A stretch of DNA of 64,000 nt from Escherichia coli. GTDB lineage: Bacteria > Pseudomonadota > Gammaproteobacteria > Enterobacterales > Enterobacteriaceae. Shown in pieces: positions 1-64,000 of this stretch (the stretch's first letter is position 1; the number at the start of each line of letters is the position of its first letter). The position numbers were made by a program, and so were the translations under genes. The notes below the pieces were generated by a model that did no database searches, had not been told where the DNA came from, and saw nothing but the letters and a program-made list of their open reading frames with translations. The stretch is taken from assembly GCF_024223415.1 (NCBI RefSeq), contig NZ_CP100501.1. The stretch is one strand, 5' to 3'.

Positions 1-1
1 G

Positions 2-685
2 TTCGCTTACAGCCCGGACAGAAAAGGCATCCATCCGCAGACTCATCTTGCTTGCTTCAGCGGTGTGCTGCAAGCGGATGCGTACGCCGGGTTCAACGAG
101 CTGTATCGCAATGGTGGGATAACGGAAGCTGCCTGCTGGGCTCATGCCCGCCGAAAGATCCACGATGTGCACGTCCGCATCCCGTCAGCACTGACGGAAG
201 AAGCCCTGGAGCAGATCGGTCAGTTGTACGCCATAGAGGCGGATATAAGGGGAATGCCGGCAGAGCAGCGGCTTGCTGAACGTCAGCGAAAAACGAAACC
301 GCTGTTGAAATCCCTGGAAAGCTGGTTGCGTGAAAAGATGAAGACCCTGTCGCGACACTCAGAGTTGGCGAAGGCGTTCGCGTACGCACTTAACCAGTGG
401 CCGGCACTGACGTACTATGCGAACGATGGCTGGGTGGAAATCGACAACAACATCGCTGAAAATGCCCTGCGGGCGGTAAGTCTGGGTCGTAAAAACTTCC
501 TGTTCTTCGGCTCTGGCCATGGTGGTGAGCGGGGAGCGCTACTGTACAGCCTGATAGGGACGTGCAAACTGAATGACGTGGATCCAGAAAGCTACCTTCG
601 CCATGTGCTTGGCGTCATAGCAGACTGGCCGGTCAACCGGGTCAGCGAACTGCTTCCGTGGCGCATAGCACTGCCAGCTGAATAA
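2..685 (+). CDS. IS66-family transposase (TnpC-like), C-terminal fragment; 5' end outside window
   Basis: ORF 65..685 plus in-frame extension to window edge; CWAHARRK and DNNxAENALRxxxLGRKN motifs typical of IS66 TnpC. Confidence 0.8.
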
Positions 686-722
686 CACATCCCCGTCAAT
701 ACGGCCCTCGCTGTACGCTCAC

Positions 723-1079
723 GTCTTAGGACCGGAGAAACGCAGACGGCGTACCACACAGGAAAAGATCGCAATTGTTCAGCAGAGCTTTGAACCGGGG
801 ATGACGGTCTCCCTCGTTGCCCGGCAACATGGTGTAGCAGCCAGCCAGTTATTTCTCTGGCGTAAGCAATACCAGGAAGGAAGTCTTACTGCTGTCGCCG
901 CCGGAGAACAGGTTGTTCCTGCCTCTGAACTTGCTGCCGCCATGAAGCAGATTAAAGAACTCCAGCGCCTGCTCGGCAAGAAAACGATGGAAAATGAACT
1001 CCTCAAAGAAGCCGTTGAATATGGACGGGCAAAAAAGTGGATAGCGCACGCGCCCTTATTGCCCGGGGATGGGGAGTAA
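723..1079 (+). CDS. insC: IS2 OrfA (InsC), N-terminally truncated
   Basis: Frame reads [31 protein letters not shown]..., matching the intact copy at 47138..47503 minus its first residues. Confidence 0.7.
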
Positions 1080-1942
1080 GCTTAGTCAGCCGTTGTCTCC
1101 GGGTGTCGCGTGCGCAGTTGCACGTCATTCTCAGACGAACCGATGACTGGATGGATGGCCGCCGCAGTCGTCACACTGATGATACGGATGTGCTTCTCCG
1201 TATACACCATGTTATCGGAGAGCTGCCCACGTATGGTTATCGTCGGGTATGGGCGCTGCTTCGCAGACAGGCAGAACTTGATGGTATGCCTGCGATCAAT
1301 GCCAAACGTGTTTACCGGATCATGCGCCAGAATGCGCTGTTGCTTGAGCGAAAACCTGCTGTACCGCCATCGAAACGGGCACATACAGGCAGAGTGGCTG
1401 TGAAAGAAAGTAATCAGCGATGGTGCTCTGACGGGTTCGAGTTCCGCTGTGATAACGGAGAAAAACTGCGAGTCACGTTCGCGCTGGACTGCTGTGACCG
1501 TGAGGCACTGTACTGGGCGGTCACTACGGGCGGCTTCGACAGTGAAACAGTACAGGACGTCATGCTGGGAGCGGTTGAACGCCGCTTCGGCAACGAGCTT
1601 CCGGCGTCTCCAGTAGAGTGGCTGACGGATAATGGTTCATGCTACCGGGCTAATGAAACACGGCAGTTTGCCCGGATGTTGGGGCTTGAACCGAAGAGCA
1701 CGGCGGTGCGGAGTCCGGAGAGTAACGGCATAGCAGAGAGCTTCGTGAAAACGATAAAGCGTGACTACATCAGTGTCATGCCCAAACCAGACGGGTTAAC
1801 GGCAGCAAAGAACCTTGCAGAGGCGTTCGAGCATTATAACGAATGGCATCCGCATAGTGCACTGGGTTATCGCTCGCCACGGGAATATCTACGGCAGCAA
1901 GCCAGTAATGGGTTAAGTGATAACAGGTGTCTGGAAATATAG
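1037..1942 (+). CDS. insD: IS2 OrfB (InsD) transposase catalytic ORF
   Basis: 301-aa ORF, near-identical to the ORF at 46275..47180 (-); overlaps OrfA as in IS3-family frameshift organisation. Confidence 0.85.
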
Positions 1943-62763: not shown

Positions 62764-62837
62764 GGTAACTCCGGAACCGAAGGGGATGCCCGGGCATCAG
62801 CCCCCGGAATGAGGAAAAGAAATTGCAGACCGGACGG

Positions 62838-63407
62838 TCAGTACTGCCGGTGGGTAATGGCCAGCCATGTGGCCTGTTTCCAGCCGTGCCGGGCCTGCAG
62901 GTAATCGGGGAAGGTGCCCTGTTCGTCCTCGCTGACCCGCCGTTCATTCAGCTGCCAGAGGCGGTATGACGCAATCAGGGCTTTTGAGGCACACAGTGCT
63001 GCAATGGTGCTCATCAGTAACAGGCAGACCAGGATACGTATCAGGGTGATGACCGGCAGTGCGGTGGCCGCAAGGGCCATACCACACAGCAGAAGTACCG
63101 GTATCATCATCAGCCAGAATCCTGTCCGCCAGAACATCCTGCGACGTCGCAGACGCCGGTCCAGTTCGTCGACCGTCAGTCCGCTGGCCCTGACCGCTTC
63201 CTCCCAGGTCATACAGACCGGACTCTCCGGTTGCCGGTCGGGCATGAGGCGCTTCAGGCGCGTTTTATGCTGGTCCAGCATATGGCGGCAGCTGCGCAGC
63301 ATCCAGCGGGTTTCTGCCAGTGGTGCGAACAGATTTATCCCTATATCACCGATGCGGCGGAGACGGGGGGCCGGTTTTTTTTCGTCGATGCTGTTGTCGT
63401 CTTTCAT
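62838..63407 (-). CDS. traX: IncI1-type transfer protein TraX
   Basis: 189-aa membrane ORF between traW and traY. Confidence 0.65.
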   Translation of the reverse strand: MKDDNSIDEKKPAPRLRRIGDIGINLFAPLAETRWMLRSCRHMLDQHKTRLKRLMPDRQPESPVCMTWEEAVRASGLTVDELDRRLRRRRMFWRTGFWLMMIPVLLLCGMALAATALPVITLIRILVCLLLMSTIAALCASKALIASYRLWQLNERRVSEDEQGTFPDYLQARHGWKQATWLAITHRQY

Positions 63408-63937
63408 CTTACGCTCCCCTGGCTCATGGCCTGTGACAGTTCGCCAAGGCGCTGTCCGTAATACTGCCGTGCGGCCAGCGCAAGTTGCTGCCCGGCGATA
63501 ACGTTACCCTGACGAATCTGCTCTTTCAGGTCGTTCATCTGCCAGTTCAGCAGGGCGGTGGTGCGCAGCAGTTCACGGAGAAGGTTATCGCCTTCCATGC
63601 CCTGCAGATCCTGCTGCCAGTCGGTGTTTGCATAGCGTCTGCCGGCTTCAAAGGCCTCAAACTCCCGCTGGCTCATGTGACCACGGGTGCGGGCCTCTGA
63701 TGATGCGGTCCGGTCAAAATATGCCGCAGCGGATGGTGACTGCAGGGCTTCAGTCAGCGCTCCACGGGTGGCCTCATTAGGGGTGCTGTCAGCTATCAGT
63801 GACAGTTGCGGATGAGAGGCGGCATCGATGATGCCGTTGTATTCATTCTGCAGGCCCACATACGTGCGCCCGGTCTGTGTTCCCACTTCACCTTTCCCCG
63901 GGGCACGACCCGCTGACGGTCTGGCGGTGTTTTTCAT
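63404..63937 (-). CDS. traW: IncI1-type transfer protein TraW; 5' end may lie beyond the window
   Basis: ORF overlapping the traX start; gene-order inference. Confidence 0.5.
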   Translation of the reverse strand: MKNTARPSAGRAPGKGEVGTQTGRTYVGLQNEYNGIIDAASHPQLSLIADSTPNEATRGALTEALQSPSAAAYFDRTASSEARTRGHMSQREFEAFEAGRRYANTDWQQDLQGMEGDNLLRELLRTTALLNWQMNDLKEQIRQGNVIAGQQLALAARQYYGQRLGELSQAMSQGSVR

Positions 63938-64000
63938 GTAAGCCGTGGCAGCATCAATCTGTTTCTGATCCCAGGTGAGGGCGGCAGGGGTATCTGCTGT

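Follow-up and report, generated by a model that had tools for sequence, protein, structure and literature searches.

The plasmids of the I complex, in which 'transfer leading' is one of four backbone regions and whose IncK2/Z subgroup (Inc, incompatibility group) is defined by more than 95% identity of the replicon (PMC6361801), have R64 as the prototype of IncI1. The IncB/O/K/Z plasmids form 'cluster 2', where the R64 transfer proteins are weakly conserved (PMC10286972). An ardA-psiAB-ssb region with Frpo repeats is characteristic of large IncI plasmids, the repeats R1-R3 having been described in their leading regions with pO26-CRL125 as reference plasmid (PMC3817090). Among plasmids from avian pathogenic Escherichia coli (APEC), the adhesin gene aatA, an open reading frame (ORF) of 3,498 bp, adjoins eitABCD in pAPEC-O1-ColBM of APEC O1 (PMC2944236), and IS629 (IS, insertion sequence) flanks eit in the same plasmid (PMC3251573). 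Here we analysed a stretch of 64,000 nt of the E. coli contig NZ_CP100501.1 (assembly GCF_024223415.1), hereafter the window, which joins both kinds of sequence. We read these 64 kb, with a probability of about 0.8, as part of a large conjugative plasmid that belongs to the IncB/O/K/Z branch of the I complex and carries a ColBM-type cargo module with aatA and eit. The plasmid is a mosaic of already known parts, neither a new kind of chimera nor the answer to an open question.

In PLSDB, the best Megablast matches changed from one part of the window to the next. IncF ColBM-type plasmids matched positions 1-18482 at 99.0-99.8%, I-complex plasmids matched 23152-43500 at 91-95% and IncK2/Z plasmids matched 43501-64000 at no more than 97.9%; no PLSDB plasmid covered more than 84% of positions 1-22000. 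Among complete E. coli genomes, one plasmid, pGF60-A (NZ_CP172186.1; E. coli GF60 from chicken meat, Switzerland; 162,495 bp, complete and circular), fully covers the middle third of the window. Local alignment placed the entire window (1-64000) on pGF60-A 41358-115960, in seven colinear blocks of about 99.7-99.99% identity each and about 99.9% overall. The two plasmids are alike in the cargo, in the junction at the recombination site rfsF and in an insert between nikB and trbC, and differ by four insertions absent from the window: a group II intron directly upstream of ssb, two copies of IS21/ISSso4 (in psiA and near the thermonuclease gene, with 5-6 bp duplications) and ISCro1, lodged inside a B-type IS629.

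The initial annotation had proposed a three-way chimera, with IncI1-type transfer genes, an F-like leading region and ColV-type cargo assembled through recombination among IS copies, and had stated that a single well-known plasmid lineage matching the whole window colinearly would refute it. Because pGF60-A matches the entire window colinearly, such a match has been found, in a lineage that is deposited but not well known. What survives of the proposal is a mosaic of two parts, an I-type backbone and a ColBM-type cargo; the three-way version is, as detailed below, very improbable.

Three other plasmids, pCh101, pEGY2 and pCFSAN083829_2, are typed IncK2/Z, relaxase class MOBP and mating-pair formation class MPF_I in PLSDB/MOB-suite, and their compared leading and transfer segments are 94-99% identical to the window. 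Like the window, IncK2/Z plasmids carry mazEF downstream of nikB, and pEGY2 and pCFSAN083829_2 have IS-rich accessory DNA between nikB and trbC. The left junction and the aatA-eit module are shared by pCh101, the right side of which is rearranged; pEGY2, within the approximately 50 kb compared, matches the aatA-eit region at the level of IS only. pGF60-A, with which the window is colinear, belongs with pCh101 to an IncK2/Z poultry lineage, to which pCFSAN083829_2 would also belong on the weaker evidence of a 20-kb transfer-region fragment.

All of the transfer and maintenance genes named in the initial annotation (nikAB, trbABC, excA, traWXY and pndA) were recovered, traW in part, by NCBIfam matches and by homology with R64 (NC_005014), as listed here (aa, amino acid).

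40092-40424, plus strand: nikA (NCBIfam MobA; 66% aa identity to R64 NikA)
40436-43138, plus strand: nikB (NCBIfam TraI/MobA(P) relaxase; 70% aa identity to R64 NikB)
50963-55666, minus strand: trbC, trbB (DsbC-like) and trbA (NCBIfam TrbC; 79%, 52% and 77% aa identity to R64)
58936-59242, plus strand: pnd-type hok/sok system, with sok RNA at 58936-59092 (Rfam, 125.6 bits) and pndA at 59090-59242 (PndA 92% aa identical to that of R64)
59869-60516, minus strand: excA, surface exclusion (NCBIfam surf_exc_IncI1, 264 bits; 51% aa identity to R64 ExcA)
60604-64000, minus strand: type IVB secretion genes traY, traX and traW, the last in its 3' part only (NCBIfam DotA/TraY, TraX and TraW; 69%, 48% and 75% aa identity to R64); traW runs past the window end

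TrbC, ExcA, DotA/TraY, TraX and TraW score above the NCBIfam cut-off and stand in the order of R64 70-82 kb, and pnd and excA are present in R64 as in the window. The genes for NikA and NikB adjoin an R64-like origin of transfer (oriT), as in a MOBP relaxosome, and the thin-pilus pil operon and shufflon are annotated in the colinear pGF60-A, beyond the stretch covered by the window. No MOBF TraI relaxase, F-type oriT, traM, traJ, F-type traY or F-pilus genes were found in the window, where homology with F is confined to 18-20 kb (the resD region) and 23.4-35 kb (the leading region). The attribution of the transfer genes to IncI1 thus holds as regards the I-complex type and fails in the strict sense, where near-identity to R64 ('cluster 1') would be expected: the window nikAB are 82% identical to R64 at the DNA and 66-70% at the protein level, and the trb, tra and excA genes 68-75% and 48-79%, so that the conjugation genes as a whole lie at 68-82% DNA and 48-79% aa identity. 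Since this identity is low and fits the cluster 2 of PMC10286972, we replaced 'IncI1-type' with 'I-complex, B/O/K/Z branch'. Just past trbA, an AgrB-like antisense RNA (55817-56042; Rfam, 51.8 bits) adjoins a dinQ-like type I toxin ORF (dqlB), making a second small toxin system beside pnd/sok.

The leading region is the part that the initial annotation called F-like. Its features are as follows.

23152-39865, plus strand: I-complex leading region, with DUF1281, methylase, antirestriction, ssb, parB-like, psiB, psiA, ardA, Rpn, DUF4942 and mobC-like genes
28832-29357, plus strand: Frpo-type repeat upstream of ssb, with copies at 35177-35696 and 38214-38542 (three-way alignment, conserved core of about 330 nt)
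39866-40091, plus strand: oriT region (in alignment with the sequences upstream of nikA in R64 and p3521, columns are on average 92% identical)

A similarity to F (NC_002483) does exist, and it would suit an F-derived block in the three-way chimera: F is 87-92% identical to the window over about 10 kb (23.4-33.3 kb; 65-96% at the protein level), with methylase to ssb, parB-like, psiB and psiA in the same order. Only short patches match F at 33.3-35.3 kb, however, and nothing homologous was found at about 35.3-40 kb: F is without ardA, has flm/hok, DUF932 and orf169 in place of the oriT-proximal 33.4-40 kb of the window, and, unlike the window, possesses a MOBF relaxase and an F-type oriT. On the contrary, R64 is colinear with the whole region up to oriT at 93% DNA identity (82-86% in the last 3 kb) and 86-99% protein identity, and R64, p3521 and pEGY2 all share the F-matching stretch and continue colinearly through ardA to oriT, including the 7 kb that F lacks. 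Because R64 and other I-complex plasmids carry the whole region colinearly, and F only its distal part, comparison of these sequences identifies the leading region as native to the I complex and not as an imported F module; the 'F-like' label of the initial annotation is right for the gene order and wrong for the origin. The division into maintenance, leading and transfer regions, the ssb-psiAB-ardA genes and the three Frpo-type repeats are those of an I-complex backbone. The leading region enters the recipient first, and its repeated Frpo-type single-strand promoters would be expected to have ssb, psiB and the antirestriction genes expressed early. A second pair of direct repeats (27206-27558 and 34136-34488) lies upstream of two antirestriction genes.

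Within the oriT region, the stretch GGGACAGGATGTG (within 39990-40060), which we take to be the nick region, is invariant across the window, R64 and p3521. The inverted repeat beside it differs in all three. Together with the low identity of NikA to the R64 protein (66%), this suggests a lineage-specific pairing of NikA with its oriT.

To the left of the leading region, the maintenance segment comprises the following features.

15140-17234, plus strand: AAA-family ATPase pseudogene (44-bp deletion at 15864/15865)
17396-18039, minus strand: vapC and vapB toxin-antitoxin pair (from annotation; VapC 100% identical to the R64 protein)
18599-19799, plus strand: hypothetical gene and resD-like tyrosine recombinase gene (19014-19799), from annotation
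20401-23016, plus strand: partition modules, parA with an orf and parM with a parR-like gene (protein accessions shared with p746)

From 14.8 to 64 kb the R64 gene order is kept gene for gene: AAA ATPase, vapCB, hypothetical gene, resD-like integrase, parA, parM, DUF1281, methylase, antirestriction, ssb, parB-like, psiB, psiA, ardA, Rpn, DUF4942, nikA, nikB, trbC, trbB, trbA, pnd, excA, traY, traX and traW. The segment at 14.8-19.8 kb is 96-98% identical to R64 at the DNA level, and the resD-like recombinase has 96% aa identity with the site-specific integrase of R64 and 94% with the F one. R64 differs from the window in its parA/parM variant (ParM is only 38% identical), in carrying impCAB and a pif-like insert at rfsF, both absent from the window, and in having nikB directly abutting trbC, where the window has its insert. 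The AAA ATPase gene, intact (2139 nt) in pGF60-A, R64 and pAPEC-O1-ColBM, has lost 44 bp flanked by CCTGAC repeats. The IncI-gamma/K1 plasmid p746 matches positions 14779-24992 in one piece at 98.2% DNA identity, thus crossing without interruption the supposed join between the maintenance and leading regions; a backbone that is unbroken over the joins required by the three-way chimera counts against it.

The replicon lies outside the window. In pGF60-A the replication region is 98% identical to that of the IncK2/Z plasmid pEGY2 over 3.1 kb. Its initiator is not of the RepZ type, RepA being only 24% identical to R64 RepZ over 101 aa, and it is 87% aa identical to the IncFII-type RepA of pAPEC-O1-ColBM (pGF60-A 1-873 and upstream); the control region lying upstream shows 80% identity with its R64 counterpart. 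An FII-like initiator under an I-like control region is the known make-up of IncZ replicons. Judging from these comparisons, the feature of these plasmids that is truly an F/I hybrid appears to be the replicon, outside the window.

The cargo occupies the left part of the window, where positions 1-18482 are colinear with pAPEC-O1-ColBM (NC_009837) 79724-98328, at 99.9% identity over 1-18.2 kb, and hold, in order, IS2 interrupted by ISEc8, aatA, an IS629-like element, eitDCBA, a resolvase gene, a toxin-antitoxin pair, an IS91-family gene, the AAA ATPase gene and vapBC.

1-722, plus strand: 3' part of ISEc8 (IS66 family), inserted in IS2, the remainder lying left of the window (annotation of the colinear pGF60-A and pAPEC-O1-ColBM)
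723-1953, plus strand: right part (1231 bp) of an IS2 interrupted by ISEc8 (matches the complete IS2 at 46264-47594 in inverted orientation at 96%; ends ...GGGGCAAATCCA)
2207-5704, plus strand: aatA, APEC autotransporter adhesin of 1165 aa (ORF of 3,498 bp)
7137-8324, minus strand: eitD, MFS transporter (Pfam MFS_1; named eitD by RefSeq in matching plasmids)
8381-9062, minus strand: eitC pseudogene, ABC ATPase (80-bp deletion relative to pGF60-A and pAPEC-O1-ColBM)
9062-10099, minus strand: eitB, FecCD permease (Pfam FecCD)
10099-11097, minus strand: eitA, periplasmic binding protein (Pfam Peripla_BP_2)
11452-12042, minus strand: serine resolvase (Pfam Resolvase and HTH_7)
12543-13102, plus strand: CopG/RelE-type toxin-antitoxin pair (annotation of the colinear pGF60-A and pAPEC-O1-ColBM)
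13610-14782, minus strand: IS91-family transposase gene (Pfam Y2_Tnp and Zn_Tnp_IS91)

The autotransporter adhesin and the eit-like transporter of the initial annotation are confirmed as aatA (2207-5704) and eitDCBA (7137-11097), both shared with pAPEC-O1-ColBM. AatA has the length described for it and shows autotransporter beta-barrel and AIDA-type/AIDA-I matches in NCBIfam; positions 1-8988, which include its gene, are 99.9% identical to pAPEC-O1-ColBM. All four eit genes are present, with eitC broken: alignment to the pGF60-A gene, which is intact, shows that the deletion removes the Walker A motif (GPNGCGKS) and shifts the frame, and the Pfam ABC_tran match begins only at profile position 36. 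Because eitC is frameshifted and without Walker A, the eit transporter of the window plasmid is probably non-functional. The cargo had been called ColV-type, which is justified in so far as the module is shared with ColBM/ColV-type plasmids; the other hallmark genes of these plasmids are missing, as neither the window ORFs nor the complete annotation of pGF60-A include colicin genes, iro, iuc, sit, iss, hlyF or ompT. The same applies to the features by which pAPEC-O1-ColBM is an IncFIB/FIC ColBM plasmid, namely the IncF replicon, MOBF/MPF_F transfer, the colicin B/M genes and tsh, absent from the window and from the pGF60-A annotation. The cargo is one shared aatA-eit module and not a ColV plasmid. 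The partial IS2 at 723 was also considered as a deletion product, which was rejected, since the missing 109-bp left end sits just left of ISEc8 in pGF60-A.

The right boundary of this module falls at a site of the rfsF type.

18210-18237, plus strand: recombination site of the rfsF type (GATCCGAAAAAAGGTTGTTCAGGATCTT), bounding the ColBM-type module on the right

The site aligns with R64 43621-43648 and F 45923-45950. The R64 position is rfsF, the start of the 'rfsF to yfcA' stretch, and whole gene sets are switched at rfsF according to earlier work cited in the same paper (PMC8004404); rfsF-ResD has also been proposed as a route for gaining foreign DNA beside vagCD (PMC9412624). In the window, as in a ResD/rfsF system, the core site lies upstream of the resD tyrosine-recombinase gene. 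The rfsF pattern has two matches in the window against 0.09 expected; the second (15515-15539, minus strand, with other spacing and inside the AAA ATPase gene) was judged to be due to chance. One copy of rfsF is found in F and in p746, two in R64, pAPEC-O1-ColBM, pPSJ-42_1 and pGF60-A. Measured from rfsF to rfsF, the module of pGF60-A (20,337 bp) is one base pair longer than that of pAPEC-O1-ColBM (20,336 bp). These two plasmids have no relation to each other as far as the midpoint of the 28-bp left site and the same sequence from CAGTCACGGATCTT on, the switch thus falling inside the rfsF spacer. R64 offers a parallel: at the position of the single site of the window, it has a 4.8-kb segment (38787-43648) between two rfsF-type sites, F-derived in that two of its proteins share accessions with F proteins, and the left junction of this insert also switches inside the spacer. 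On the right, the window and pAPEC-O1-ColBM differ by two single-nucleotide polymorphisms (SNPs) in 14638-18167 (at 17181 and 18167), and a cluster of differences starts from 18268.

These junctions define the module as an rfsF-to-rfsF unit in both plasmid families, not bounded by IS ends, and they contradict the earlier idea of an assembly by recombination between IS copies, as does the insert between nikB and trbC, a transposition with duplication (see below). Most likely, to judge from the compared junctions, the module was exchanged by ResD-mediated recombination at rfsF. Lying at the standard variable position left of rfsF, the 20.3-kb module would have moved by ResD/rfsF, either excised as a circle and then integrated or by way of a cointegrate that was formed and resolved. 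We put forward only tentatively the more specific possibility that the whole 20.3-kb aatA-eit module is an rfsF-bounded cassette, excised and integrated by ResD as a unit and shuttling between IncF ColBM and I-complex plasmids.

The same architecture could also have arisen if the module had been swapped by RecA-dependent homologous recombination in the vapBC-rfsF-resD flanks, with no part for ResD. The sequence right of rfsF is 80-98% conserved among F, R64, p746 and the ColBM plasmids, the right crossover is bracketed only to 18168-18267, and homologous exchange does occur here: in a patch of 19 SNPs at 14834-15594 (14.8-15.6 kb) the window has the ColBM allele and pGF60-A the R64 allele. This patch, which looks like a short homologous-recombination tract, splits the window from pGF60-A, so ordinary homologous recombination would operate in this segment too. 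At the left junction, however, the plasmids are unrelated left of rfsF, so that RecA would have had no homology on that side, and identity from the middle of a 28-bp site is the signature of a site-specific crossover, as is the similar switch inside the spacer of the R64 insert. We therefore regard the RecA-dependent swap as rather unlikely.

Against exchange by ResD at rfsF, and against our reading of the plasmid at large, several points have to be weighed. What is said of the replicon and of the module's left end comes from pGF60-A, as neither lies in the window. At the right site the crossover, bracketed as above, could have been RecA-dependent, given that the window shares the entire right rfsF and the next 30 nt with pAPEC-O1-ColBM without a difference; the putative ResD activity at the window rfsF is read from comparative signatures. 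The description of the nikB-trbC insert as a composite transposon derives from two identical outward-facing IS1414 ends. Finally, the transfer between IncF and IncK2/Z may have run either way, the AAA ATPase-vapBC end of the module being found in R64 and p746 as well.

As to this direction, the module, or its IS91-AAA ATPase-vapBC end, might have arisen on an I-complex plasmid and passed to the IncF ColBM plasmids, the IncK2/Z copy then being the older. AAA ATPase-vapBC-rfsF is standard I-complex backbone, with several accessions shared with R64 and p746, so that its interpretation as purely imported cargo was rejected. Moreover, homology with the I-complex backbone (R64 and p746 alike) begins at 14779, at the start codon of the IS91-family transposase, which abuts the backbone there. 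One-ended transposition of IS91/ISCR elements can carry adjacent DNA, and an IS91-family element without one end might, speculatively, have carried neighbouring DNA and so explain AAA ATPase-vapBC in the ColBM module. The distribution of the module speaks for the opposite course: complete aatA-eit modules are common on IncF ColBM plasmids (99.0-99.8% over 1-18482 among the matches listed), the join to an I-complex backbone was found in only one of 5,426 complete E. coli genomes (at least 80% coverage of window 1-24000), and no paper in the literature searched links IncZ/IncK2, or the I complex in general, with eit or aatA. An origin on the I complex is thus unlikely. The IS91-family transposase gene itself is without upstream IS sequence; rolling-circle transposition of IS91 is not expected to produce a target duplication.

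A mis-join, during assembly, of IncF ColBM and I-complex contigs of one isolate at the IS or vapBC repeats would likewise bring the two parts together. The junction regions are in fact repeated (IS629-like elements, vapBC-rfsF), and the 80-bp and 44-bp deletions of the window could in principle be sequencing errors. Nevertheless, the independently sequenced circular pGF60-A has exactly the same joins over 64 kb, the IncK2/Z plasmid pCh101 shares the left junction and the aatA-eit module, and the SNP pattern is continuous across 14.6-18.5 kb, making such an artefact extremely unlikely.

The join of a ColBM-type adhesin and iron module to an IncK2/Z plasmid is rare, pCh101, with the left junction and the module, being an additional case to the one counted among complete genomes. 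Of modest practical value, it is of some epidemiological interest, because IncK2/Z is already common in poultry as a carrier of blaCMY-2. It also provides a clean worked example of cargo exchange at rfsF and not at IS ends, a mechanism proposed before for IncI1, IncR and IncFII. If the cassette proposal were true, the APEC-associated genes would have a second conjugative vehicle in poultry E. coli, expected from its replicon type to be compatible with IncF, and rfsF would serve IncF, IncI and IncR plasmids generally as a docking site for large cargo.

The IS629-like elements, the complete IS2 and the insert between nikB and trbC are listed here.

5797-7087, plus strand: IS629-like element, A-type copy 1, 1291 bp (ends TGAACCGCC...GGCGGTTCA; flanks ATT/ATA; no target duplication)
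43207-43799, plus strand: toxin-antitoxin genes mazE and mazF (annotated in pGF60-A, pEGY2 and pRM10042-1)
43802-50708: insertion of 6,907 bp bounded by inverted IS1414 right-end copies (8-bp duplication AAGTGAAG at 43794-43801 and 50709-50716)
44056-45345, plus strand: IS629-like element, A-type copy 2 (flanks CTT/GTT; no target duplication)
46264-47594, minus strand: IS2, complete (5-bp target duplication AAGAG, read from the sequence)
49184-50494, minus strand: IS629-like element, B-type, 1311 bp, frameshift region intact (full-length ALIL pseudoknot; no target duplication)

The arms of the insert (43802-44018 and 50492-50708) are 217 nt long, 100% complementary and outward-facing, and match the IS1414 3' end; pRM10042-1 and pA16EC0070-1 have the empty site with a single AAGTGAAG. 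The block at 43802-50708 is a transposition product with target duplication, at a position where p3521 carries a resistance region. An IS1414-bounded composite element would have transposed between mazF and trbC, leaving the 8-bp duplication, and would later have been scrambled by IS629-like and IS2 insertions and by deletions down to the 6.9-kb remnant. Both IS1414 fragments are cut by IS629-like elements 35 bp apart in the IS1414 sequence.

The absence of target duplications at IS junctions, noted in the initial annotation, was verified for the three IS629-like copies (no 3-4 bp repeat) and does not extend to IS2 (AAGAG) or to the 43802-50708 block (AAGTGAAG). Several further features would suit the joining of plasmid parts by recombination between IS copies: the elements are many, the two A-type copies differ by 1 nt and lie 38 kb apart in direct orientation, and the IS629-like element between nikB and trbC is A-type in three module carriers (the window, pGF60-A and pCh101), B-type in pCFSAN083829_2 (module carriage not checked) and ambiguous in pEGY2 (95.7% blended identity, with an extra 1.25-kb insert). 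In pCFSAN083829_2, moreover, the AT-rich core of the insert is inverted between inverted IS629 copies. On the other hand, copy 1 is at the same place in pAPEC-O1-ColBM, its junction beside eitD having been inherited unchanged from the ColBM plasmids, and no reciprocal pairs of target-duplication flanks were found among the three copies of the window and the six of pGF60-A, one of which, outside the window, has its own 4-bp duplication AAAC. With the cargo boundaries at rfsF and a proper duplication around the nikB-trbC insert, the three IS629-like copies without duplications reflect local rearrangement and not the joining of major plasmid parts. The flanks of the copies at 44056 and 49184 do not fit a simple inversion between the two, which was therefore rejected.

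A-type copy 2 replaces about 530 bp of the left IS1414, the flanking IS1414 pieces being non-contiguous. In both A-type copies 20 nt are missing immediately after the frameshift site and the ALIL pseudoknot is shortened (the match of copy 1 spans 87 nt as compared with 117), which puts orfA and orfB into one frame, separated by a stop; because of this deletion they are probably defective and non-autonomous. The second A-type copy may have arisen with help in trans or by gene conversion. The AT-rich segment at 47595-49183 (about 42% GC), with small ORFs at 48104-48487 and 48867-49163 that have no Pfam match, is the apparent original cargo of the IS1414-bounded element.

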